64,000 bases of DNA. Origin: a virus. Location: IMG/VR virus record IMGVR_UViG_3300009502_000026, positions 1-64,000 of that record; one strand, 5' to 3'. Below, one piece after another: positions 31,708 to 46,185 of the stretch (the first letter of the stretch is position 1; every line of letters starts with the position of its first letter). The position numbers and the translations under genes are program-made. Under the pieces are notes generated by a model. That model was not told the origin of the DNA and did not search any database. It saw only the letters and a program-made list of their open reading frames with translations.

Positions 31708-32495
31708 TCCTTCAGCAAGTCCAACACCCCAATGTTCTCAATAGGGACTGGTGTTGCTACATCAATCTTGGACTTGATAATATCACAATAGGAAGGCTCC
31801 TTCTCAATCAGGATGGACTTCCTACCCATCCTCTGAGCTACAATCCCTACAGTCCCACTACCTGCAAAGGGGTCCAATACGGTGTCCCCTACGTCTGTGT
31901 AGACCTCCAGAACACGCTGAACCAAGCTAGGTGGGAAAGCCGCAGGATGCTCGGACCTGATGGAATCTTCTCCAACGGTACTCCAGATTGCCCTCTGACT
32001 GATCTTGCGTGCTCGTATCTCCTGGGCACCCCCACCGATCTTACGGAAGGTGTACAAGTGCTCAAACTCAGGTACAGCCCTGGGTGCCGAGATTGCGTGC
32101 TTACCCCCGGTCACTTTTGCAAAATCCTTCTGCCAGATACGCTGTGCCTGAAGTACCAATCCATGAGCCATCCCAAATGCCCAGTACACCCACCCCATAG
32201 GCATCTCACAAGGTTCCTCAGTACCTAAGATGTCCCTACTAGGAATGATGTCTCCAAAATTGAATACTGCATACCCCCCTCTTACAAGCACTCTCTCTAC
32301 CTCAGACATACAACGGTTCAAGAGGCCAAACAGGACACCAATACGGATGTCCGGTTCGTAGTCTTTCCCAACCCCGTATGGAGGAGACGTGAATACCAGA
32401 TGAACTGATTCTGAAGGGAGGGTAGGCAGGACTTCTTCGAACAACCCACAAAAAACCCGGCATTCAGGTGTCATGCTGGGATCATACCCCAACAA
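31704..32495 (-). CDS. Site-specific DNA methyltransferase (N4-C/N6-A, beta class)
   Basis: FTSPPY catalytic motif precedes HPAAFP and VLDPFAGSGT SAM-binding motif. Confidence 0.92.
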   Translation of the reverse strand: MLGYDPSMTPECRVFCGLFEEVLPTLPSESVHLVFTSPPYGVGKDYEPDIRIGVLFGLLNRCMSEVERVLVRGGYAVFNFGDIIPSRDILGTEEPCEMPMGWVYWAFGMAHGLVLQAQRIWQKDFAKVTGGKHAISAPRAVPEFEHLYTFRKIGGGAQEIRARKISQRAIWSTVGEDSIRSEHPAAFPPSLVQRVLEVYTDVGDTVLDPFAGSGTVGIVAQRMGRKSILIEKEPSYCDIIKSKIDVATPVPIENIGVLDLLKD

Positions 32496-32534
32496 AACGT
32501 AGGCTGATTATTCGTCTACCTACAAACGGACCAA

Positions 32535-33494
32535 CTAACTGATGAGGGTGGAGGCATGAGCCAGAAGTGTGCAAAGCCCCAAAACTATTGGGAAAACAAC
32601 GAAATTACGGGGGGACAAAACGCCCCGGCCGACGCTGGGACCGAAGCTTGATCTAATGCCAACTCCGTACTTAGGCTGAGACACACCACGGATGAACTTG
32701 GTAGTCCTTGCCTTCATCTCCGTGGCCTTATCGAACTGTTGCTCAGCATTCTGCTTCAAGGACTCATACTTGGAGGACTTCTCAATCGAGAGTGAGATGC
32801 CTCCAATGCTGTAGTCAAACTCGTCTGCCGTCCAGTTCATTGCCAGGGAAAAGCAAGCATGGGTGATGGCATTCCACAGGATTGCCGTTCTCCAAATAGG
32901 CTTCTTTGCCACCAAGTCATCAATGGTTCTGAGGTCTTCAGTCTCCGGGGGAAACATGTTCCACCAGTCCATGCTTCTCTCGATGTACTCAGCAAGTTCG
33001 GCATCTTCCCATAGCTGCCCGAAGACCCTGTTGTAAGACCCAATGGTGCCTTCATGCTCTGGGGGACGGAAGCGATAGAACTTGTCAGGAGAGTTTTTCA
33101 ATACATTTTGTGTGCTTACACACACGAATCTGTACCAATCCGCAACAGTGAGATCGTACATATACTGTCGCACCGGGAGAGTTTCTACGGACTTCACTGG
33201 CAGGTAAACGACAGCATCCCCGACAACAGACAACACCATATCACCGGGTTTGAGAGTCTCGGCCGGAACCTTATCCTCCAGGCCCAGCCCAAGGTAGACC
33301 GGGTGGCCTCCGGTCAACACCATGGTTCCTACATCGTTGGTGACAGCAACGATATGCTCCCAAGGAACCTCATTGCGAATGACATTCTCAATGCGTTTCC
33401 ACTCGACGTTGCCATCAGGGGATACCGAACGCACTTTGAGTTTGCCCGTATGGTAAGATGACTTGACCCTCACACGCTGCGCTTCGGTCAACAT
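32535..33494 (-). CDS. Split-intein C-half (IntC 134 aa) fused to the C-extein of a putative neck/head-tail adaptor protein
   Basis: Hint-domain motifs: EWKRI, block B LTGGH, LKPGD, block F MYDLTV, block G VLKN/S; then extein SPDKFYRFRPPEHEG...FDYSIGGISLSIEKS. Confidence 0.85.
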   Translation of the reverse strand: MLTEAQRVRVKSSYHTGKLKVRSVSPDGNVEWKRIENVIRNEVPWEHIVAVTNDVGTMVLTGGHPVYLGLGLEDKVPAETLKPGDMVLSVVGDAVVYLPVKSVETLPVRQYMYDLTVADWYRFVCVSTQNVLKNSPDKFYRFRPPEHEGTIGSYNRVFGQLWEDAELAEYIERSMDWWNMFPPETEDLRTIDDLVAKKPIWRTAILWNAITHACFSLAMNWTADEFDYSIGGISLSIEKSSKYESLKQNAEQQFDKATEMKARTTKFIRGVSQPKYGVGIRSSFGPSVGRGVLSPRNFVVFPIVLGLCTLLAHASTLIS

Positions 33495-34261
33495 TCAAGT
33501 TCCCTCTCAGTCCACACCTTAAACGACCATCCCAGCCTATGGGCTTCTTCTTCAGCTACCCCCAAACGTACCCTGACCTTCTCGTACCCACAATAGGCCG
33601 GGTCCAAAGCATAAGAAGGCTTAACCTCGATCAGGGTATGTGTCCCATTCTGATGGGTAACAATGAAATCCGGTAGGATATGCCAGCCATTGGGCAACGC
33701 CAGGCAGTCCTCAAATACGTAGGATATTACATCATTTAGATGGTCTAACAATTCAGATGCCCGTTTTTCGTAAGATGACCTAACCTTAAATCGCCCTCCC
33801 TTGACAGACTGGACCCATTCTGCCTTCCCATAGGGGTAGTTGAACTCAGGGTGGGATTTGATGAACAACACCCTGTTCCGGGAATACTTTGCCCTCGTAG
33901 ATGGCCTGTCAAAGTTCCCGGCAGCCCACTGTGCTTCCAATTGTCCAGGGCGGGATTTCCCCTTCCATGAACGACCAACACGTACACCCACATCATGCAG
34001 CACCCCCCTAGATGCTGGGTTCCACATAGCCCGGGTGAGCCGCTGGATGCTTCCTTGACCTAGCCCTGTCACGACCATCATGTCTGCCCAGGAAGTTCCC
34101 TGGGAGTGAAGTTCAGTGATGATGTCCCGGCGCACGCCCACAATCTTCTCATTGCCCTTCTTGGGTCGTCCCCTCTTAGCGAACTCTACATAGGTCACAC
34201 CATGCTTCTCCAGCAACGGCACGAGTTTAGGGTGCGGGATGGAAACCTGCATACAAGTCAT
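33488..34261 (-). CDS. Free-standing homing-type endonuclease (N-terminal HTH, C-terminal TnsA-like PD-(D/E)xK)
   Basis: RSSYE...ILPDFIV...LIEVKP..WTE motif; lies between the two split-intein halves; exact start uncertain (34273, 34261 or 34252). Confidence 0.75.
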   Translation of the reverse strand: MTCMQVSIPHPKLVPLLEKHGVTYVEFAKRGRPKKGNEKIVGVRRDIITELHSQGTSWADMMVVTGLGQGSIQRLTRAMWNPASRGVLHDVGVRVGRSWKGKSRPGQLEAQWAAGNFDRPSTRAKYSRNRVLFIKSHPEFNYPYGKAEWVQSVKGGRFKVRSSYEKRASELLDHLNDVISYVFEDCLALPNGWHILPDFIVTHQNGTHTLIEVKPSYALDPAYCGYEKVRVRLGVAEEEAHRLGWSFKVWTERELEC

Positions 34262-34266
34262 CGAAT

Positions 34267-34281
34267 ATAGCACAGAAAACG
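34267..34281 (-). promoter_or_regulatory. Putative late promoter inside the insertion (CGTT-N7-CTAT; overlaps extended -10 TGcTATATT)
   Basis: CGTTTTCTGTGCTAT between the IntN stop and the endonuclease gene. Confidence 0.5.
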
Positions 34282-34302
34282 ATAGTGTTTGTCTGGTGGG
34301 GA

Positions 34303-34791
34303 TTAGCTCGTCACGATGGTGTAAAGATCTTCCAAACTCACGATGATCTTCTCCCCATCAGCATCCACCTCGATAGTCTCCTCTCCTCCGAGACATTGAT
34401 CTCGGAGGAGCAACCGGAGTTTCCCCACCATGTCCAGCATTGCCATGGAGAACGGTGGGACAATCGTGGTGCCTGAGACCACGACTGCCCACTCCTGAAC
34501 AACTTGCTGTGTCTGTGCCCCAGCGAACTCCTGGAAGGTCCACCTGATCCTGTAGTCCCCAGCCGTAGCTGAGACAGGGATCTGGAGGGAGGCATAGTAC
34601 TCCCCTACCGTGGGATGGAGGGGTGCCCTGGTTGCACTCCCAATGAGTACCTCCAGGTGGGACACAGGGTCTACATAGTAGATCGCATACGTGATGCTGA
34701 AGGCATCCGATGGGTTACCCTGTGAGTTGGTAAGGAAGATGTCTAGGTCTCCCCTACCAAGTGTCTGATTTGGTGTGAATACAACACCCAT
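34303..34791 (-). CDS. N-extein of putative neck/adaptor protein fused to a 30-aa IntN
   Basis: 132-aa extein (Ig-like GEYYA..GDYRIRW) then intein block A CLGGEETIEV...VSLEDLYTIVTS and TAA. Confidence 0.85.
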   Translation of the reverse strand: MGVVFTPNQTLGRGDLDIFLTNSQGNPSDAFSITYAIYYVDPVSHLEVLIGSATRAPLHPTVGEYYASLQIPVSATAGDYRIRWTFQEFAGAQTQQVVQEWAVVVSGTTIVPPFSMAMLDMVGKLRLLLRDQCLGGEETIEVDADGEKIIVSLEDLYTIVTS

Positions 34792-34809
34792 GGCTACACC
34801 TTTGAAGGG

Positions 34810-35820
34810 TTACTTACCACCCTTGCCCCCGCCATCCCCACCATCCTTACCGCCACCATCCCCACCACCAGTAGGAGTGGAGGTCGTGGAGGTATACGGA
34901 GACGATGTGAAGCCACCGTCAATGAGGAAGATATCGTTGAGACATGCCTCAAAGGACCCACCAGTAAGGGCTTCACTATTGGAGAGCATGAACCCAACAT
35001 GTGTGTATGGGTCCCTACCGTCCCCTGTGAGAGATACATCCAGGGACCTGAAGAGGACCCAATCCTGTGGGAGGCTGTCCGAACTAGATGTACCGTAGTA
35101 CCACTCAATGAGGGTGCCTTCCACCCGAAGCTTCAGGTATGTGGACCCTGGCTGTACCACACCCGTGGCACTAAGGCTACCAATGGACCCAGCCTCCGTA
35201 GCAGCTACCAACATACCCCCACCTACCCCTAGCCAAATCACATGCTTGGCTACGAGGTCTTGTGCTCCACGCCAGGCAAGGAACTGGATGGTAGAGGTAG
35301 GATCTCCATTAACGATAGTCATCAGCCGGATAGCCACAGAAAAGTGCCACTTATCCACAGAGTCAAGACTCACGTAGAAACGTGGCCCATCGAACGTAGT
35401 CCCCAAAGCTACAGCACCTTCAGGAAGGCCCAAATGAAACCCTGTGCCGTCCACACCAACCGTGGCACCGGACACAGTTCCAGGGTCCACGAACACTCCC
35501 GTAGACTGCCAGAAGTCTGGGGAGGACGCAGGGGGGAACCCCTTCTGAGAACCCTTTGTGAAGATGCTGATGTAGAGTTCCAGCAACCCATCATTGTTGA
35601 GGGAATACACTAGGTCCCCTGGGGAATAGTCAGTGTTGGTATCCCACTGACCCTTCAGGAAACCAAGCTTGTTGGAAACAAGGGAGCGGTACCGTGTACC
35701 ATCAATGGCATACCTGGCCTTTGTACCCTCAGCCGCTAGAGCCCCACTCAAGGTGCCATCTGGAGTCTCCAGGGACATCCTGACCATCCTGCTTGTACTA
35801 CCGGAACCACCGTCACCCAT
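34810..35820 (-). CDS. Virion-associated beta-sandwich (lectin-like) protein with Gly-rich tail
   Basis: WDTNTDYSPGDLV (CBM5/12-like), YLKLRVEG..WYY..W (ConA-like), terminal GGGDGGGKDGG. Confidence 0.5.
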   Translation of the reverse strand: MGDGGSGSTSRMVRMSLETPDGTLSGALAAEGTKARYAIDGTRYRSLVSNKLGFLKGQWDTNTDYSPGDLVYSLNNDGLLELYISIFTKGSQKGFPPASSPDFWQSTGVFVDPGTVSGATVGVDGTGFHLGLPEGAVALGTTFDGPRFYVSLDSVDKWHFSVAIRLMTIVNGDPTSTIQFLAWRGAQDLVAKHVIWLGVGGGMLVAATEAGSIGSLSATGVVQPGSTYLKLRVEGTLIEWYYGTSSSDSLPQDWVLFRSLDVSLTGDGRDPYTHVGFMLSNSEALTGGSFEACLNDIFLIDGGFTSSPYTSTTSTPTGGGDGGGKDGGDGGGKGGK

Positions 35821-37398: not shown

Positions 37399-37935
37399 CT
37401 AGGGGGGTGTGGGCATGTGGGCATACGAAACGTTGATGTTCGAAGCACAGTAGAGAGTCCCACCCCCTGTGATGGATTCACAGAACAGGGCTATCCTCAT
37501 GGTGGCGGAAGGCTCAACCCATACGCTGTAGGGAGCAAGGGTGTCACTGACCACGGGCCCAGGGATCGCAAGCAAGTCACCCGTGTCCACATTCCGAAAA
37601 CTCAGGACGGCTCCGTCAACATCAGCAACAGAGATGCGAGCCAGGACTTCCAAGATGTAGTTCGTGGTGAAACCTGTCTTCACGAACTGGGACGGGTCTA
37701 GCAGTATGATGTCTGACACCCGGGTAGGCGTGGCAGGTGCCGAGGACACACCACTACCCAGTAGGAGAACGGATGGACCTGGATCACCCGCTGGACCTGG
37801 ATCACCCGCTGGACCTGGATCACCCGCTGGACCTGGATCACCCGCTGGACCTGGATCACCCGCTGGACCTGGATCACCCGCTGGACCTGGAGGGCCTGGA
37901 GGTCCCCCTGCGGTTAGAGGACTGAAGATAGGCAT
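37399..37935 (-). CDS. Short collagen-like fibre protein with shared C-terminal domain
   Basis: GPP/GPAGDP repeats then SVL.LGSG.S..P...RVSDI...IALFC.SI.GGGTLY domain. Confidence 0.8.
   Translation of the reverse strand: MPIFSPLTAGGPPGPPGPAGDPGPAGDPGPAGDPGPAGDPGPAGDPGPAGDPGPSVLLLGSGVSSAPATPTRVSDIILLDPSQFVKTGFTTNYILEVLARISVADVDGAVLSFRNVDTGDLLAIPGPVVSDTLAPYSVWVEPSATMRIALFCESITGGGTLYCASNINVSYAHMPTPP
37774..37890. repeat. Perfect 18-bp tandem repeat, 6.5 copies
   Basis: TGGACCTGGATCACCCGC x6 plus a half unit; encodes GPAGDP. Confidence 0.95.
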
Positions 37936-38334
37936 TTAGGTACCCTCGGAAACCTGGGCATCCCCAGAGCCACCCACAACATCCTCCCAAACACCATGAA
38001 CTACACCAACGTAGACAGGTGATGGAAACTCATAGTACATCTGATGCCCCAGGGGCACCTTGAAACTCAGGTTGGTTGCACCCGTGCCGAACTTCACATA
38101 AAGGATCGAGTTTGTGGACGCATTGTAGATGGAGGCACTCTTACGGTTTGGGTTTGCAGCTAGAAGCTGCACATCCACAGTAGAATGACCTACAACAGTG
38201 AGACCCTCCAAGGTAGGGGCTGCAAGGCACTCTACAGGGAGAGGATTATCCCTGGTAATTGGATTGCCATCAACATCAACCAATACCTCTGCTTCACCTG
38301 GAATGGGCATTGTCGCATCCTCTGCCGTGACCAT
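37936..38334 (-). CDS. Small beta-rich virion protein
   Basis: LLAANPNRK..IYN..LYVKFG motif reminiscent of phage jelly-roll decoration proteins. Confidence 0.55.
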   Translation of the reverse strand: MVTAEDATMPIPGEAEVLVDVDGNPITRDNPLPVECLAAPTLEGLTVVGHSTVDVQLLAANPNRKSASIYNASTNSILYVKFGTGATNLSFKVPLGHQMYYEFPSPVYVGVVHGVWEDVVGGSGDAQVSEGT

Positions 38335-38346
38335 GGGTGGCTAGAG

Positions 38347-38685
38347 TCACCCTGCCACCTTTTCTACAAGTCGAATGCCTGTGACACCGGGGGGGCCGTG
38401 TGAACCGGACCTATCCGAATCTGTCCAGACAACGGAAGACCCTGACACATAACCTGTCAGAACATACAGATAAGCGACTGACCCACTCTGAGAGAAGGGA
38501 ATAGTATAGTGTGTAAAGGGGTCAGTTGGAGCACTGACGTTAAATGTCCCAAAATGAGCTTCGTAGGGGACTTTGTAGGGTGAGAGGGATACGGGAAGCT
38601 CCGACACAGAAGTATTCGGAGTCGGGGTCTGGTAATGCAGACTTGACGGAGTGAACGCATCGCTGAGAAGTGTTACATCACCCAT
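38347..38685 (-). CDS. Small fibre-cassette protein (cassette 3)
   Basis: TGATG overlap with the upstream gene; YVLTG..WTD..PPGVT similar to the other small cassette genes. Confidence 0.65.
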   Translation of the reverse strand: MGDVTLLSDAFTPSSLHYQTPTPNTSVSELPVSLSPYKVPYEAHFGTFNVSAPTDPFTHYTIPFSQSGSVAYLYVLTGYVSGSSVVWTDSDRSGSHGPPGVTGIRLVEKVAG

Positions 38686-39671
38686 CAGTAGATCGGGTCA
38701 ATCCCGCCCCATGGAAGCCAGAAGTCACCCATTGCAATCAGGTTCTTGGTCCCACCATTCTCGTCAGCAGTGGCCCCCTGGAAGATCGGGGTGTTGTACT
38801 GCATCCTGAAGAGATGGCTCATTCCCTTGTATGGATACCGGAGCTTGTCAACCATCTTGGGCTGACCATCGGGGGGCATGGGGAAGACATACCAGGACTC
38901 ACAGCCACCATTGTAGTCCCCATTGGGTACCCACCCCATCCAGAGACCTGGAATCGTGGTAGCTACACCATTGACACTGGTACGACCCCCAATAGAGCCA
39001 TACTGTGTGTTGGTACGCCCGATCATGTACTGGTATCTGAGGGTGATGTAAAGCCCGTTATCGTAGGTCTTCCAATAGGCATGGTGAAGAATGTAGGGAT
39101 TGGTGTCCCAATTGAAGATGGGAGTCCCCTTGTCCAGGCCAAAGAAGAAGAGAGGATTACCCCCCAGGTAGAGAGGCCACCCACTCATCCAGAAACAGTA
39201 ACCCTCAGCAGCATCACCTACCACTGCATGGAAACGATAGGTCCCATTGTCAGGGATCAACCGCCAATCCCAGTTGGTGGAATCGGACCACATATCCCCA
39301 TCCGTGGCAGTGGGTACCTCAGTGGGAGAACCCCCAGTGACGAACCCAGCGGACAGAGACCAGTAGACCTTGAAGGTGTTGTAATTGTATGGGTAGTGGT
39401 AGACAAGGAACTCAAACTTGTTCCCATACGAATCTGTAGGCATCCTGAAACGAATCCAGGAATTGTTGTTGTTGAACCCCAAGGCACCAGGCTTCCAGGT
39501 ACTTACAGGACCGGGGACAATAGTGCCATCCACTGTATTCCCCCAGCCATTAACACCATCCCCAGATCCAACCTGAGTCCAGCCCGCTGCAACAAGACGT
39601 TCGAATAGCAGCCACCAGGCATGGAAGCAATCCGTAGGGTTCTTGTTGGTGTTTGTTGTATCCCAAGCCAT
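38685..39671 (-). CDS. ~330-aa Trp/Gly-rich fibre-associated paralog (cassette 3)
   Basis: GW.Q.GSG.G, YCFWMSGW, YKGMSH, FWLPWGG; close paralog of 39687. Confidence 0.75.
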   Translation of the reverse strand: MAWDTTNTNKNPTDCFHAWWLLFERLVAAGWTQVGSGDGVNGWGNTVDGTIVPGPVSTWKPGALGFNNNNSWIRFRMPTDSYGNKFEFLVYHYPYNYNTFKVYWSLSAGFVTGGSPTEVPTATDGDMWSDSTNWDWRLIPDNGTYRFHAVVGDAAEGYCFWMSGWPLYLGGNPLFFFGLDKGTPIFNWDTNPYILHHAYWKTYDNGLYITLRYQYMIGRTNTQYGSIGGRTSVNGVATTIPGLWMGWVPNGDYNGGCESWYVFPMPPDGQPKMVDKLRYPYKGMSHLFRMQYNTPIFQGATADENGGTKNLIAMGDFWLPWGGIDPIY

Positions 39672-39686
39672 TGTCCTACCTCACCC

Positions 39687-40703
39687 TCACATCACCGGGT
39701 CGGAACCGTTCCAAGGAAGCCAGAATTCGTGTAGAAGCATCCAGTTCTTGGTGCCACCATCCATGTTGGCAGTTGCCCCTGTTGGGAGAGTGCCAGACAT
39801 GAGAAGTCTGAACATGGTACCGACACCCTTTGTGGTGTAATGACACTCCAAAGCCTGATCAGGTGTTCCCGGAGGGAGTGCTGGGTACGTGTACCTGGCA
39901 CCGTACAGGCCGTAGATGTTCCCATCGGCGTAGTACATGGGAACCAGGATAGGCAGGTAGGTCATGGTCCCTGGCAGGGTGCTGGTCCTACCCATGAGGG
40001 TCTGACCCATCACGTTGCAGTTGTCGTGATGTGCAGCGTTCATGCCTAGGTGCCTGTAGGCAGTCAAAATGCACGGGTTATCCGCCCAGCCGTTGTGTAT
40101 TCCCCTCTCGCCCACATGGAAGACGTAGGGGAACGTGTCTCCTGCCAGACGGGTGCTGTCAGCAAGCTTGTCCAGCCCAAAGAAGAACAGGGGCCGATCA
40201 CCAACGAACACGTACCAACCACTCATCCAGAAGCAGTAGCCTTCATCAGCCCCACCAGCCACGACATGCTGCCGATAGGTCCCTGGCCCAGGGAGGAAGG
40301 TGTAGTTCGTTGGGTAGAGACGACGGACTTCATCCGTTGCACTGGGTCGAATGGTCACATCAGGAGTACCCGAAACAAAGCGGTCAAAGGGTGACCAGTA
40401 CAGGTACCAATTGCAACTATCCCCGCCACGCTGGATGATGATCTCAATCCTGTTGCCGTCAGCATCACCTTCATCAGGGACAGGCATTGCCAACCGAACC
40501 CAACTACCATCCGTATGGTAGTCAGCCGCACTTGCTACAGGGCCGGGTACAACGGTGCCACCATTGGCAGTGTTGGCCCATGTGGCACCGTTACCAGAAC
40601 CCTTCTGAATCCAACCAACGTTCTTGAGTGCAGAAACGAGGTTCCACATGGTCTCGTAGCTGTCAGCGGGAAACAGATTGGCGTAATCAAAGTTCCAGGC
40701 CAT
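39687..40703 (-). CDS. ~340-aa Trp/Gly-rich fibre-associated paralog (cassette 3)
   Basis: GWIQKGSGNG, EGYCFWMSGW, PLFFFGLDK, TKG, FWLPWNG. Confidence 0.75.
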   Translation of the reverse strand: MAWNFDYANLFPADSYETMWNLVSALKNVGWIQKGSGNGATWANTANGGTVVPGPVASAADYHTDGSWVRLAMPVPDEGDADGNRIEIIIQRGGDSCNWYLYWSPFDRFVSGTPDVTIRPSATDEVRRLYPTNYTFLPGPGTYRQHVVAGGADEGYCFWMSGWYVFVGDRPLFFFGLDKLADSTRLAGDTFPYVFHVGERGIHNGWADNPCILTAYRHLGMNAAHHDNCNVMGQTLMGRTSTLPGTMTYLPILVPMYYADGNIYGLYGARYTYPALPPGTPDQALECHYTTKGVGTMFRLLMSGTLPTGATANMDGGTKNWMLLHEFWLPWNGSDPVM

Positions 40704-40711
40704 GACTTCCC

Positions 40712-41449
40712 CTAGGTGTACGCAACACCCACCTGTGCAGTGAGTGTTGTCGTATCTGTTGGGCTGCTTCCGGTAGCCTTAGTTGCCACCATTGACAACC
40801 AATAGGTTCCAGGAGACAGAGTGATCAGGGGGACCGTGAACACAGCCCCCGTAGTTGAGGAGATTGTGGTTGGGTAGGGTGGGTCAAGAACACTCAACCC
40901 AGTTGTCCGGTCAATTAGGTCTACCTTCCAACTGCAACCACTTGATACCTGACCAAACCCTTGGAACTCAAGGTACAAGGTCATTCCAACAGGAACCGTG
41001 TACCAGCCTGTTAGAAGAACTGTAGCCCCAGCCTCAACAGATCCCGGGTCCATGGTTGAGAACAACGAACAGATCGGGAGAGGTCCAACACTTCCATCCG
41101 GGCCTGAAGGCCCCCTTGGGCCTGAAGGGCCAGATGGACCCTCTGGACCAGATGGGCCCTCTGTGCCCGACGGTCCGGGACTACCTGAAGGACCCTCCGG
41201 TCCTGGTGGTCCTGATGGCCCACCGGGAGATCCCGAAGGACCCTCTGGTCCTGACACTCCACGGGGACCTGAAGGACCAGAGGGACCTGATGGTCCCAGT
41301 GAACCTGATGGTCCAGGCAATCCTTGAGGCCCTTGACGAGGATAAACAGGTACCCACGAAGTACCATTCCAGACTGGCATCTGACCGGGCAACGCACTCG
41401 GCCAGAGTGTCTCCAGAACTTGGTCTAATCTCCTTCGTAGAACCGACAT
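40712..41449 (-). CDS. Collagen-like fibre protein
   Basis: Shared anchor [29 protein letters not shown] triplets, C-terminal beta domain. Confidence 0.8.
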
Positions 41450-41529
41450 TTGGAACTCTTACCTCACAAGAGCATCAAAGGAATACCGGAGACTAAGCAA
41501 TAAACCTAAACTCCGAAAGACATGAAACT

Positions 41530-42474
41530 CTATGGGGTGGTGTAGGAGACGTTGACGTTTGCAGATGTGTACAGAGTCCCACCCCCAGCAATACTCAAAC
41601 AGAACAGAGCAATACGCCTAGGAGTGATCAACGTGAACGTAGTGATGAATGTAGTAAGAACGTCACTCACTACAGGCCCAGGCACCGCTAGGATATCTCC
41701 TGTATCCACATCCCACAAAGACAAGACGGCCCCCGCAGAATCAGCTACAGTAAGCCTAGCCATGACCTCAATACTGAACTCAGTGGTATAACCTACTTTG
41801 GTGAACCTAGAGGGGTTCACTAAAGTGATATCAGAGACTCTCTTGATAGTGGCAGGTAGTGAAGAATCACCACTACCCAACTCAACAACACTAGGTCCAG
41901 GATACCCTACAGCACCTGTTGGACCGGATGGCCCTAATGGACCTGATGGACCTGATGGACCTGACGGACCAGGATCACCTTGGGGACCCGAGGGACCCGA
42001 AGGTCCAGGGTCGCCTTGAGTGCCTGATGGACCTGAAGGCCCAGGGTCACCTTGCAGTCCAGAAGGTCCCGAAGGTCCTGATGGACCCGAAGGCCCAAGG
42101 TCACCCTGCGGGCCTGACGGGCCTGATGGTCCCGATGGACCTGTACTACCCGTTGGACCCGAAGGACCCGAGGGTCCTGTGGGGCCTGTTAGACCTACGG
42201 GGCCTGATGGACCTGATGGCCCGGAGGGCCCCGAAGGGCCTTGAATACCCTGAATACCTTGGATGCCTTGGATACCCTGGGGTCCGGTAGCTCCCCGCAA
42301 GCCTATACCAACTGGACCTGGAGGACCACTCGGCCCACTTGGTCCACTTGGACCTATGGAACCTGGAGGGGGATACCCGGGTACCCATTGAAAACCATTC
42401 CAGACAGGAACCTGCCCTGGTTGTGGGTTCGGCCAAAGTCTCTCAAGGATTTGAGTCAGGCTATCGGAGGGCAT
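41530..42474 (-). CDS. Collagen-like fibre protein
   Basis: Anchor [18 protein letters not shown]; about 50 GXY triplets; C-domain shared with 37399 and 47804. Confidence 0.85.
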
Positions 42475-42503
42475 TGGTTCCTACATTCCTCAACCATAAG
42501 ATG

Positions 42504-42995
42504 CTAAGTGAGTTGCCTCACGTAGACAATGGAACCTGCCCTCAAAGCCCCCCCATGCCATTGTAACCCTGTAGGATCAGGTGCATCATTGGCACTCCAG
42601 TCTACAGGTTTACTGTCACTATCCCGAATTGCCGTCATCAGGAAGGTAGAGACAGTTGGGATAAGACCGTCCTGGGGGAGGGCAATAGGTTGTGAGGACA
42701 CCATGAAAAGTGTAGCTTCAACAAAGCTAGTGTCATCCAGAGTAACCGTGTAAGTCCTTACCGGAACGACAAGAACACTAGAGGGTGTACGGTCTGGAAT
42801 TATGACAGGTTTGAGAAGCCCCACATACATCACAGGATCATTAAAACTAGTATCTTCAGGTTCTACAGGATGAGTGACTGTAGGAATCAACTGAACAGCC
42901 GGGGTCAAATTCGGCAGAACAATGTACTTACTCCTGATAGGGAACAGAGGAGCACACGGATTGGTGTCAGGAAGATTGATCCCGTAGTCAGTCAT
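42504..42995 (-). CDS. Small fibre-cassette protein (cassette 2), with internal duplication
   Basis: EDTSF/DDTSF duplicated segment; terminal FLMTA..W..DP.G. Confidence 0.6.
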   Translation of the reverse strand: MTDYGINLPDTNPCAPLFPIRSKYIVLPNLTPAVQLIPTVTHPVEPEDTSFNDPVMYVGLLKPVIIPDRTPSSVLVVPVRTYTVTLDDTSFVEATLFMVSSQPIALPQDGLIPTVSTFLMTAIRDSDSKPVDWSANDAPDPTGLQWHGGALRAGSIVYVRQLT

Positions 42996-43007
42996 CGAAC
43001 CCTCCCG

Positions 43008-44030
43008 TTACGGGGGTGGGAGACAGATAGGTTGTGTGCTGTTCCCAGACCATGGGAGGATGACCTTATTGAAAACCACCCAGTCCATGATTGGTGGGGG
43101 AGTCAGGTCTGTGGAAAGAGCCGTTCCAGAAGCGAACAGAGGAGCATTCCACATCACCGATGCAAGCACTCCCTTGGTACAACTGTAGGAGTAGACAGTA
43201 GACCGAAGAAGAGTCACCTTCAAGGGATTGTACATCCCATGAACATCAGGTCCAGTAGCCTGATCACTAGCAGGAACACTGAGACTGTTTGCATTCCCAC
43301 TGAAGGGCAACATTCTCCAGTTGCCTCTAGCAGCAATGGTCTTATCAATCCAACCGCTACCTGTCCAAGAGTCTGTACCACAACAAGAGGCATAACCCCC
43401 AGGTCCACCATAAGGAGTATCAGTACCCTGGGATAGAGTGTAGTAGGGGTCAATGTCATCTGCCCTGGAGATGTTCACCTTTGCCAACATCAGGAGAACT
43501 AGGTTCTCCCAAGCTGTACCCCACAGGAACATGTAGAAGTCCTGGATGTCACTACCTGCCTTGTCAAATGCAATCAGGTTAGCTACATACGTCCCGTTGG
43601 CAGGGAAGACAACATGGTATTCTGAAACCCAACCGGGAGGGCCAGACTCTCCATTTACATCTCTCACACAGAAGGGCCGAGCATCCTCTGGTTGGTCCGG
43701 GAGAGAACCATCTCCAGCGGTGTAGCCGAGGGACTTCCAACCTTCAGTGGTGTACCAGACTTTCCAGACGTTGCTACCCTGGTTGAAGAAGCACACCCCA
43801 CGGGACAATCCATCAGTACCCTGTTGGATCTCCACGTATGCGTATTGGCTCTGGAGGGAATCTGCCATGAAGCCAGCCCCACCTTCAATTCTTCCTCCAG
43901 GAGTCCCAGGAGTCCCATCTGACCAAGCACAGATAGTGTAGCTACAGTTGGCAACTAGATATAGAACTACCTGTTCAAACCAACCATGGTCGGTGGCAGG
44001 GAACTGATTGATTAGACTATGCTGTGCCAT
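43008..44030 (-). CDS. ~340-aa fibre-associated paralog (cassette 2)
   Basis: INQFPAT, GLSRGV, QDFYMFLW, TKG, ILPWSG; close paralog of 44040. Confidence 0.75.
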   Translation of the reverse strand: MAQHSLINQFPATDHGWFEQVVLYLVANCSYTICAWSDGTPGTPGGRIEGGAGFMADSLQSQYAYVEIQQGTDGLSRGVCFFNQGSNVWKVWYTTEGWKSLGYTAGDGSLPDQPEDARPFCVRDVNGESGPPGWVSEYHVVFPANGTYVANLIAFDKAGSDIQDFYMFLWGTAWENLVLLMLAKVNISRADDIDPYYTLSQGTDTPYGGPGGYASCCGTDSWTGSGWIDKTIAARGNWRMLPFSGNANSLSVPASDQATGPDVHGMYNPLKVTLLRSTVYSYSCTKGVLASVMWNAPLFASGTALSTDLTPPPIMDWVVFNKVILPWSGNSTQPICLPPP

Positions 44031-44039
44031 GACAGACTC

Positions 44040-45074
44040 CTAGACCGGGTTCCGGCAGAGAGGTTGAGTTCCATCTTCCCAAGGGAATACCAGACGACCC
44101 TGGACTACATAGTCCCTGGAAGGAGGGGGTCCGAGGGTTGTAGAGAAAGATGTACCTGTGCCGAAGTTGGTGGCATTCCAGTACATATTCTTGAGAGACC
44201 CCTTGGGGAGGTTAGGGTAGTTACTATCACCGTTACGTCCAATCAAAATTCTTGAAGGGTGATATCTACCATGGGCATCTTGTGTGTAACCACATCCAGG
44301 ATTACCAATAGCCCCATTACTCCATGTTGTATTAGGGGCAAAGTAAGCTGATCGGTATGTACCATTGTTGATAGGATTGTTCCTATTGAACCATGCAGAC
44401 CCAGTATGCCATTCATTCTCACCCGTAAGATTCAACATAGAATCAAGACCGTAAGAAGTATCAACCCCAAGGTGCATGGGATAATACGGATCAACGTCGT
44501 CAGCTAGAGCAATGTTGATCCTTGCCAACATCAGGAAACCTTGGGAAGACCAATTTATGTTCCACAGGAACATGTAGAAGTCCTGTGTGTCCCCCCCGGC
44601 TGTGTCATAACCAATGATGCTAGCTGTATAGGTGTTGTCCCCAGGCATCGTATAATTTCTCTCATTAGTGTATGCAGGAGGGGGTGCATCCACATTCCAA
44701 GAAGTCATGTTGAAGGGTCGGCAATCATTGGGTGCATCCGGTACGTTGTAGGTACCCAAGCCACCCCCCGTACTGTTCCAACCACTCACTGTGTATCGAA
44801 CTACCCAGTAGTGAGAGGCATTACTGATGTTCTGGAAGAGCACCCCACGAGAAAGACCTCCAGGGCTCTGTTGAAGCTCAACGTAAGCACCTTCAGTACT
44901 GAGGTCTCCTACAACCACCCCTCCCAGGATACGTCCATGGGGAGGTACAGCATCAATCCCATCACTCTGGGCAAAGATGGAGTACCCACAGTTATCCACG
45001 AGGAACTGAGCTACCGTTCTCATCCAACCTACGTTGGTTGCTGGGAACTGATTGACTAGTGTGTGCTTTGCCAT
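44040..45074 (-). CDS. ~340-aa fibre-associated paralog (cassette 2)
   Basis: VNQFPAT, GLSRGV, QDFYMFLW, PKG, VFPWED. Confidence 0.75.
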   Translation of the reverse strand: MAKHTLVNQFPATNVGWMRTVAQFLVDNCGYSIFAQSDGIDAVPPHGRILGGVVVGDLSTEGAYVELQQSPGGLSRGVLFQNISNASHYWVVRYTVSGWNSTGGGLGTYNVPDAPNDCRPFNMTSWNVDAPPPAYTNERNYTMPGDNTYTASIIGYDTAGGDTQDFYMFLWNINWSSQGFLMLARINIALADDVDPYYPMHLGVDTSYGLDSMLNLTGENEWHTGSAWFNRNNPINNGTYRSAYFAPNTTWSNGAIGNPGCGYTQDAHGRYHPSRILIGRNGDSNYPNLPKGSLKNMYWNATNFGTGTSFSTTLGPPPSRDYVVQGRLVFPWEDGTQPLCRNPV

Positions 45075-45084
45075 CGAAATCTCC

Positions 45085-46185
45085 CTATGGGATCAGCCCG
45101 AAATCAACATGAACCTCTGCCGAAACAAACACCCTATCCGCCGATGTGCTCCCACCAGACAATGACCTAGAAATAAGCACCATCCTCTTGGAACTATGAG
45201 AAGCTGGGGGGTCAATGAAACTACGGTTGAGGTTTACTATGTACAAAGTGGGTGTGGTAGCCGACGTAGTTATGGGACTAACGGAGAGAAGAGACGTTGA
45301 AGGGTCTTCAGGTCTCACAAGGTCCAGGGTTGCATCAGTCAGAGTGCCTGTGATGTAAGCTATCATCCTAAGAGTCAGTACAATTCGATATCCAAAAGGA
45401 GGGATATAGTCATCTAGGGTAATCAAAGGAGAATACCCTAGCTGGGTAGTACCATTGAAAGAGGTATCCCCAGAACCCATGGAGATAGAAGTAGGCCCCT
45501 GAAAACCTCTTGGTCCAGAAGGTCCTAATTCACCTTGAGGACCGGATGGCCCTAATGGACCGGATGGACCCGAAGGCCCAAGGTTACCTTGTGGACCAGA
45601 TGGACCCAAGGGGCCTGAAGGACCGGATGGACCCGAGGGTCCTATAGTCCCCTGCGGGCCTGATGGTCCTGACGGGCCCAAAGGCCCAGATGTACCTTGA
45701 GGGCCTGATGGTCCCGAAGGTCCAGTTGGACCTGATGTGCCTGGATTACCTTGTGGACCTGAAACACCTTGGGGACCGGAAGGGCCTGTAGGCCCCGAGG
45801 GACCGGGATAACCTCTTGGACCTGATGGACCTGACGGACCTGACGGACCTAATGGTCCTGACGGGCCAGGATCACCTTGAGGGCCTGATGGTCCAGAAGA
45901 TCCTATTCCCCGTGGACCTCTTGGCCCTGTAGGTCCTTCAATTCCTTGGATACCTTGAATACCCTGCGGTCCAGAAGGACCAGAGACACCTGGGTCACCT
46001 TGAATACCCTGTGGACCACTTGGACCCAAAGGCCCACTAGGTCCAATTGGACCTGTCGGTCCCGAGGAACCTCCAGGATATGCCGGAACCCATGCAGTCC
46101 CATCCCATATTGGAATCTGACCGGGTAACGCATTCGGCCAGATTGTTTCCAAAATCTGGTCTAGCTGTCTCCGTAGGACCGACAT
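45085..46185 (-). CDS. Collagen-like fibre protein
   Basis: Anchor [25 protein letters not shown]; about 60 GXY triplets (GPS-rich); C-domain begins SMGSGDT. Confidence 0.85.

Follow-up and report, generated by a model that had tools for sequence, protein, structure and literature searches.

A fractured gene with a probable atypically split intein and a putative TnsA-like homing endonuclease in a very large freshwater phage

Introduction

Genes of environmental phages that are broken up by split inteins and free-standing endonuclease genes have been described by Dassa et al. (2009; PMC2677866). In these fractured genes the spacers are 27–51 nucleotides (nt) long, the hosts comprise eight kinds of enzymes of DNA synthesis, repair and packaging, the endonucleases are of the GIY-YIG or the Vsr-like type, and most of the inteins are canonically split with an N-terminal intein fragment (IntN) of 88–105 amino acids (aa). 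Here we analyze a fractured gene in a stretch of 64,000 nt (the window), which is the first 64 kb of the 94-kb contig of the IMG/VR virus record IMGVR_UViG_3300009502_000026. On the minus strand of the window a conserved gene is interrupted by an intein that is divided into a short IntN and a long C-terminal fragment (IntC), and a free-standing endonuclease gene lies between the two fragments.

Atypically split inteins of the S2 kind have an IntN of 15–37 aa that ends after helix α1 (PMC13014065), and the inteins AceL-TerL and GOS-TerL, with an IntN of 25 and 37 aa, respectively, are of this kind (PMC13014065, PMC11766414). VidaL in UvsX (IntN of 16 aa) and PolB16 OarG (IntN of 15 aa) are split at the position S1, after β2 (PMC13014065, PMC10189870). 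Contiguous inteins are known in phage virion genes, namely in the portal genes of mycobacteriophages (PMC5050341). In the literature that we searched we found no naturally atypically split intein outside TerL, UvsX and PolB, and the fractured genes described there are confined to DNA-metabolism and packaging enzymes and one protein of unknown function.

Results

The two exteins belong to one host protein

We read the locus as a fractured gene with a trans-splicing split intein and a free-standing homing-endonuclease gene and give this reading a probability of about 0.85. An earlier note on this DNA had proposed a fractured layout in three different frames with a 30-aa IntN and a 134-aa IntC. 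All its coordinates and sequences match, and the same atypical split around a free-standing endonuclease gene is found in the independent contigs L001, L004/L005 and L027/L028.

A tblastn search of phage records and IMG/VR contigs with the two extein halves yielded 40 related loci, and in most of them the N-terminal and the C-terminal half are adjacent and in one frame. Sixteen distinct uninterrupted homologues (296–325 aa; 42–76% identity) tile onto both halves without gap or overlap (alignment A1). A lack of contiguous homologues of the joined exteins, named in the earlier note as evidence that would speak against its proposal, was thus not observed, since these 16 sequences span the junction. 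The N-extein aligns end to end with residues 1–134 of the uninterrupted homologues (53–66% identity), and the C-extein is 57–76% identical to their C-terminal halves and collinear with them from the junction on. Most uninterrupted genes read ...LLRDQ↓NPDKFYHFRPP... at this point (the arrow marks the junction), with a varying residue before it in a few genes and with Asn as the +1 residue, except that L033 and L034 have Asp. In the window the sequence is ...LLRDQ↓[intein]↓SPDKFYRFRPP..., and removing the insert restores the collinearity with the intein-free homologues at RDQ↓(N/S)PDKF. The predicted spliced product has 317 aa and would differ at the junction from the intein-free orthologues only by the exchange of Asn to Ser at +1.

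The host protein belongs to a family of 1458 database proteins (E ≤ 0.001), and among the 120 best family members all source names are "hypothetical protein". The cultured jumbo myovirus Tunturiibacter phage Tunturi_5 has a more distant uninterrupted homologue, gp319, with 32% identity, which reads ...ELLSDEDPDRNYHFRPP... at the corresponding place.

Identity of the intein and position of the break

The window's IntC gives weak, sub-threshold matches to the Pfam entries Intein_splicing and PT-HINT. Because the pieces of the window stay below threshold on their own, their membership in the inteins rests on a chain of homology through the contiguous intein of L003. This intein scores above the curated cut-offs of both TIGR01445 and TIGR01443, and its best relative of solved structure by sequence is the PolII mini-intein of Pyrococcus horikoshii (5bkh, E 2e-5). 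Its model, built from a 25-row alignment that leaves out L001, is a HINT domain with a predicted local distance difference test score (pLDDT) of 93.7. The top Foldseek matches to this model are nearly all inteins and otherwise other HINT domains, with template-modelling (TM) scores of 0.65–0.79, and they include NrdJ-1, PolII, TFIIB, DnaB, VidaL (6vgv, E 4e-8), gp41-1 and Npu DnaE. The window's IntC is 34% identical to residues 36–154 of the L003 intein (E 5e-28), and by this identity the HINT fold predicted for L003 can be carried over to the window's intein.

In the L003 model two β-strands (residues 7–12 and 15–20) are followed by helix α1 (21–29), a loop and helix α2 (35–42). The window's IntN aligns to residues 1–30 and ends one residue past α1, and the IntC starts in the loop before α2. 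Judged by this model, the break is at the S2 position, just after helix α1. The IntN carries a net charge of −7 and the first 45 aa of the IntC one of +4, a pattern that recurs in L001, L004 and L039 and that fits an electrostatic capture between the fragments.

The residues expected for the splicing chemistry are largely in place. Cys1 follows directly on ...LLLRDQ and is a Cys in all alleles at this site. Block B (TGGH), block F (MYDLTV, with the Asp kept), the terminal Lys-Asn followed by Ser and the 185-aa extein, all of which had been pointed out before, are present in the ORF 32535..33494. A search with the IntC region gave 25 further IntC–extein proteins, which all keep TxxH, the Tyr/Phe-Asp of block F, the terminal Asn and a Ser or Cys at +1. 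Wherever the IntC of these relatives is of full length, block B reads T(G/A/S)GH, and P0147, which is shorter at the N terminus, has TGSH; the C-terminal junction is ...VLKN↓S in the window and N↓S or N↓C in all relatives. Among sister alleles, including the endonuclease-free allele of L039, the ratio of nonsynonymous to synonymous substitution rates (dN/dS) is 0.06–0.11 for the intein pieces and 0.09 for the extein, compared with 0.37 for the endonuclease. The conservation of these residues together with purifying selection in the relatives argues for a working intein, and by extension from the relatives the window's allele presumably splices as well.

Anatomy of the locus and authenticity of the DNA

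The features of the locus are compiled in Table 1. The start positions of the three ORFs are 0, 1 and 2 modulo 3, so that three different frames are used. The spacer would be 29 nt long if the endonuclease started at GTG 34273 and 50 nt if it started at ATG 34252. The stop codon of the endonuclease gene and the ATG of the IntC overlap in the sequence ATGTTGA (33488–33494), and the Shine-Dalgarno-like sequence GAGAGGGAA lies upstream of the IntC start. No such sequence is evident before any of the candidate endonuclease starts, and by eye no motif shared with the endonuclease leader was seen in the upstream regions of 24 minus-strand genes.

Table 1. Features of the fractured gene and its surroundings in the window
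Feature	Position	Strand	Length	Description
N-extein + IntN ORF	34303..34791	−	162 aa	132-aa N-extein + 30-aa IntN, TAA stop
N-extein	34396..34791	−	132 aa	Ends in ...LLLRDQ; counterpart in the homologue model: N-terminal β-sandwich domain + first helix
IntN	34303..34395	−	30 aa	CLGGEETIEVDADGEKIIVSLEDLYTIVTS + TAA; Cys1, β1, β2, helix α1; net charge −7
Non-coding spacer	34262..34302	−	41 nt	IntN stop to first endonuclease ATG (34261)
Free-standing endonuclease gene	33488..34261	−	257 aa	From ATG 34261; 254–261 aa across the starts GTG 34273, ATG 34261 and ATG 34252
IntC + C-extein ORF	32535..33494	−	319 aa	134-aa IntC + 185-aa C-extein
IntC	33093..33494	−	134 aa	α2 to HINT end; block B TGGH, block F MYDLTVADWYRF (MYDLTV), terminal ...VLKN
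C-extein	32535..33092	−	185 aa + stop	Opens with +1 Ser, SPDKFYRFRPPEHEG...; helical half of the host protein
Hydrophobic C-terminal extension	32538..32603	−	about 22 aa	VVFPIVLGLCTLLAHASTLIS
Gene adjoining the N-extein ORF upstream	34810..35820	−		Glycine-rich tail
Collagen-repeat genes	37399..46185	−		Fibre-like, in series

CheckV estimates the completeness of the 94-kb contig at about 22%, which implies a phage of several hundred kb; the source is a very large freshwater phage. Three runs, which belong to two studies (freshwater, 2017, and lake water, 2020), have Logan contigs that cover the region 32400–34900 of the window with 0 differences, 0 gaps and a depth of 18–31, and at least one of these runs may be the source sample. 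A further run, X6, contains only short pieces of the stretch. Since identical contigs were obtained from two studies, the stops and frame changes are real and no assembly errors. A single continuous frame in the reads, which according to the earlier note would have undone the proposal, was not seen in these contigs.

The interruption might conceivably be removed at the RNA level, as group I introns carrying homing endonuclease genes often interrupt phage genes, or it might be an artefact of assembly or sequencing. Both possibilities can practically be dismissed, because the HINT parts are encoded in frame with the exteins on both flanks with boundaries exact to the residue, the three separately assembled runs are identical and the layout occurs in five other contigs. 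A scan of the region with Rfam gave no intron family at E ≤ 1.

We also considered that the two ORFs act as separate proteins, or that the allele is a defective one in a decaying or non-viable genome with the intein motifs as mere relics. This is very unlikely: all three ORFs are intact, a protein identical to the window's IntC–extein is recorded on 39 contigs and the stated depth was reached in lake samples of two studies that lie years apart. The shortening of the endonuclease (see below) would be in keeping with decay, and the model of the host protein does have two structural halves, a β-sandwich and a helical region, which could be thought to function separately. The break at residue 132, however, lies inside the helical half and not at the domain boundary (about residues 105–115), and in over 1400 relatives both halves form one chain.

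The endonuclease

The window's endonuclease matches the Pfam family PF08722 (TnsA-like endonuclease, N-terminal) with 28.0 bits at a cut-off of 26.5 bits, and the enzymes of L001 and L004 reach 39 and 36.4 bits, respectively. NF033179 and T7 endonuclease I are matched as well, but weakly. A helix-turn-helix-like region at the N terminus is followed by a C-terminal TnsA-like PD-(D/E)xK core (E...ILPDF...IEVK). Alignment A3 shows no variation at E183, P196, D197 and E211; the four intein-borne copies all have K213, and the free-standing paralogue in L001 has E-A-Q at this motif. By its sequence the enzyme is thus a TnsA-like PD-(D/E)xK endonuclease and neither of the GIY-YIG nor of the Vsr-like type. 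It has 81 related database clusters, most of which carry PF08722 and none of which is named beyond "hypothetical protein". In the literature we found no description of a PF08722-type family as homing endonuclease.

In comparison with the enzymes of L001, L004 and L027 a central segment is missing in the window's endonuclease. Short forms of 242–262 aa occur in its closest relatives.

Allelic series and mobility at the insertion site

Among related contigs of huge phages the same codon is found in four states. The site is empty and the gene uninterrupted in L006–L026 and others. In L003 it is occupied by a contiguous mini-intein of 154 aa without endonuclease, which is contained in a single 450-aa ORF (CIGGEEK...ILVHN↓C). 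The split intein accompanied by a gene for an endonuclease is found in the window, in L001 (the 485-kb GenBank phage LR745208.1), in L004/L005 and in L027/L028. In L039, finally, the intein is split and only a remnant is left, a 34-codon ORF (L039:3030–3135; MLEGLL...KEIVEKELGL followed by the stop). This remnant consists of the first about 29 and the last about 5 codons of the L004 enzyme. The natural endonuclease-free split intein of L039 has therefore arisen by internal deletion.

The cassettes of IntN, endonuclease and IntC in L004 (L004:3041–4387) and L027 (L027:3041–4387) are 93–100% identical on the DNA level except for one 90-nt window with 70% identity. The exteins which flank these cassettes are 68–81% identical, the switch is abrupt at the splice junctions and the upstream DNA is unrelated. 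A nearly identical cassette in diverged exteins is the trace to be expected from a recent lateral copying of the whole cassette.

A second insertion site in relatives

The same gene has a second intein site (...ADEF↓DYSIGG, between residues 92 and 93 of the C-extein), at which the window carries no insert. Our observations on this site cover L039:3796–5257, L034, L035/L037, L038, P0123, P0127, P0136–P0139 and P0143–P0145. In L027/L028 the intein is contiguous there (L027:4664–5170; 169 aa, Ser1...ILAHN↓Ser+1). In L034, L035, L038 and L039 it is split after an IntN of about 33 aa, and a gene for a 317–345-aa Vsr-like endonuclease (..DGCYWH..WEH(D/E)..) lies between the fragments. In L039 and in the sources of P0123 and P0127 the protein is thus encoded in three pieces with two atypically split inteins. 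The inteins of the two sites are 33% identical (E 7e-18).

Further nucleases are found around the host gene. A distant paralogue of the TnsA-like enzyme is located just upstream of it in L001 (L001:1841–2965), long repeat-containing proteins with a Vsr-like C terminus are encoded downstream of it in L001 (L001:5459–6892) and L038 (L038:5477–7072), and a gene with a PHROG assignment as "homing endonuclease" lies beside it in L007 (L007:4539–5870). The locus has the look of a hot spot of mobile nucleases.

Two paralogous inteins with the same structural break and with two unrelated endonucleases, TnsA-like at the first site and Vsr-like at the second, lead us to suggest, tentatively and with less than even confidence, that free-standing endonuclease genes have in the α1–α2 loop a second place where they land recurrently, apart from the canonical site of the endonuclease domain, and that the S2 inteins originated in this way. 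In that case the extant intermediates would document in nature the gene-breaking pathway that was proposed in 2009, and they would supply new short-IntN inteins, among them some with Ser1/Ser+1 and some that splice with neither of the assisting histidines.

The host protein

The model of the uninterrupted homologue L006 has a pLDDT of 64.6. It shows a confident β-sandwich at residues 1–105 (macroglobulin/Ig-like, Z 9.6) and a helical C-terminal half which is poorly modelled, with a pLDDT below 50 at residues 132–159, 220–239 and 260–298. The intein site corresponds to residues 134/135 of L006, in a low-confidence stretch between helices.

The earlier note had regarded the host as a neck/adaptor protein, and of this assignment only weak leads stand. 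The exteins match no family in Pfam, PHROGs or NCBIfam, and a Pfam scan of the whole alignment A1 at E ≤ 10 gave only a chance match to GEVED. No convincing adaptor fold was obtained with Foldseek (PDB, BFVD) and with VIA-align wide, which returned mainly generic Ig/macroglobulin-like β-sandwich matches to residues 1–108. Weak rows point to chains of portal–adaptor complexes, 8gtd_M (E 8e-3) and 8i4m_G (Z 7.5, residues 116–221). The feature neighbours in ESM-Atlas, with values of 0.82–0.89 and thus under the reliability line of 0.9, carry domains of Mu gp36, T4 gp13, gp6-like connector and SU10 adaptor type. The gp319 of Tunturi_5 is labelled "head-tail connector", a label which probably derives from a prediction with Phold or DRAM-v, the annotation tools of its paper, and from no experiment.

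As to the neighbourhood, in the window collagen-like fibre genes stand in series upstream of the fractured gene; relatives have a strong minor-tail match (L006) and a virion-protein match (L030) nearby. The genes downstream in the window encode a DNA methyltransferase and a ligase, and gp319 of Tunturi_5 is flanked by RecT and NUDIX genes; both neighbourhoods count against an adaptor identity. Taken together, the host protein is probably virion-associated and possibly a head-to-tail adaptor; the virion role of the product and the dependence of virion assembly on trans-splicing, which the earlier note had put forward, are inferences.

The fibre-like genes upstream contain Gly-X-Y collagen repeats (e.g., GDPGPA seven times) and alternate with proteins of about 335 aa without family. 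The gene that adjoins the N-extein ORF has a glycine-rich tail as its end, ...PTGGGDGGGKDGGDGGGKGGK, and no family match either. At its own C terminus the host protein carries in the window a hydrophobic extension after the conserved ...SPRNF. About a third of the family has this extension (the window, L007, L010–L013, P0129, P0130, P0133, P0134, P0142 and P0146), and the members without it end right after the SPRNF motif. The hydrophobic tail could have a membrane-inserting or an assembly role.

Discussion

In the mechanism that we propose a class-1 mini-intein would reside at LLRDQ↓(N)PDKF in a gene that is conserved in a clade of very large phages, and a PD-(D/E)xK endonuclease gene in the α1–α2 loop of this intein would have brought in a stop codon and a new start. 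The gene would then be expressed as two polypeptides, the N-extein with the IntN and the IntC with the C-extein. The acidic IntN would dock on the basic N-terminal part of the IntC and complete the HINT fold, and trans-splicing by Cys1, the Thr and His of block B, the Asp of block F, the terminal Asn and the +1 Ser would release the spliced protein. The endonuclease, whose homing activity and target we infer, would serve the element's own spread by homing and not the phage.

Several points weigh against this reading. The window's IntC alone remains under the curated cut-offs of Pfam PF14890 and TIGR01443, and no RNA run is listed among those that contain the locus. The dN/dS values and the homing signature come from sister alleles, and no close DNA relative was available for the window's allele (its intein is about 42% identical to that of L001, with saturated synonymous sites). 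Compared with its relatives in L004 and L001 the endonuclease is short by 30–90 aa, and its gene has no obvious ribosome-binding site, so that the enzyme may be weakly expressed or decaying. Moreover, the window's intein has neither the His of block F, which is replaced by Tyr (WYR), nor the penultimate His, and the loss of both assisting histidines could make the C-terminal cleavage slow or impaired.

The exchange of the penultimate His for Lys and the Ser at +1 had already been noticed in the first inspection of the sequence, and both observations hold. Of the 25 database relatives, which mostly have Lys, Gly or Ser at this position, 23 lack this His. It occurs in P0145 and P0147 and otherwise only in the alleles L001, L003, L004, L027 and L039 from IMG/VR and GenBank. 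The missing penultimate His is therefore a feature of the clade. More remarkable is the loss of the His of block F, to which the earlier note had not drawn attention. This His is usually kept (WHR, WHN, NHN) and is absent only in the window, in P0123 (Tyr) and in P0124 and P0139 (Ala); P0123 is 81% identical to the window's variant and has the same WYR...VLKN↓S.

With both histidines lost one might suppose that the halves associate without splicing, the fragments being held together non-covalently by an impaired HINT domain that is retained in the protein, comparable to the fragmented NrdA of phage Aeh1, whose assembly proceeds through interaction domains. For the non-covalent rescue of a gene that was split by a homing endonuclease there is a precedent (PMC3045599). 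Nevertheless we judge this explanation to be improbable. All of the more than 30 alleles, also those with Lys, Gly or Ser as the penultimate residue, retain Cys1, TxxH, the block-F Asp, the terminal Asn and a nucleophile at +1, which would be unexpected if the chemistry were dispensable, and a retained domain of 164 aa would be a large obstacle at an insertion point between helices, a stretch which is modelled with low confidence. A penultimate His is likewise lacking in natural split inteins that are fast, for instance Npu DnaE. We therefore prefer trans-splicing by a split intein.

The locus takes fractured genes and short-IntN split inteins, which are known from a handful of cases in enzymes of DNA metabolism or packaging, to a conserved, non-enzymatic and probably virion-associated gene of huge phages, and the TnsA-like enzyme would add a third endonuclease type to the fractured genes. 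Together with its relatives the locus forms an unusually complete series from the empty site to the endonuclease-free split intein, which makes the proposed origin of split inteins testable on natural alleles. An IntN of 30 aa is short enough for peptide synthesis, and a panel for studying the cyclization of Asn without the two histidines is at hand in nature, with Lys, Gly or Ser as the penultimate residue and with Tyr or Ala instead of the His of block F. For annotation the three ORFs should be taken as one spliced product and a mobile endonuclease. The findings are relevant mainly to studies of intein evolution and to users of split inteins with short fragments.

Comparison with known systems

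With the fractured genes of Dassa et al. the locus shares the co-directional order of N-terminal host part with IntN, short spacer (41 nt here), endonuclease gene and IntC with C-terminal host part, as well as the overlapping ORF ends. Endonuclease-free alleles exist in both cases, gp41-7 there (PMC2677866) and L039 here, and the terminase locus of that study is also split near the N terminus, with an IntC of 122 aa (PMC2677866). The locus differs in its host, which is non-enzymatic, probably virion-associated and of no known family, and in its endonuclease, which by sequence belongs to the canonical PD-(D/E)xK enzymes and there to the TnsA-like family PF08722.

AceL-TerL and GOS-TerL, compared here by their descriptions, resemble the window's intein in the short IntN, the long IntC, the break right after α1 and the phage origin, and AceL-TerL also in the class-1 chemistry with Cys1. 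Unlike AceL-TerL (Cys1/Cys+1) and GOS-TerL (Ser1/Cys+1), the window's intein has Ser at +1, a penultimate Lys and a Tyr in block F, and its host is not the terminase large subunit. VidaL and PolB16 OarG likewise have a short IntN that is in principle usable for semisynthesis; the break examined here, in contrast, is of the S2 kind and the IntN is about twice as long.

With the PD-(D/E)xK homing endonuclease I-Ssp6803I and with I-Bth0305I of the Vsr-like/EDxHD family (PMC3239194) the endonuclease has in common that a mobile element employs a restriction-endonuclease-like fold, in which the DNA-binding module is N-terminal and the nuclease core C-terminal. Unlike the Vsr-like/EDxHD family, the window's enzyme has the classical E...PD...ExK motif and no Vsr-type His active site. 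To sum up, the arrangement as such is already known, and the locus is a well-supported new example of it and not a new kind of system.

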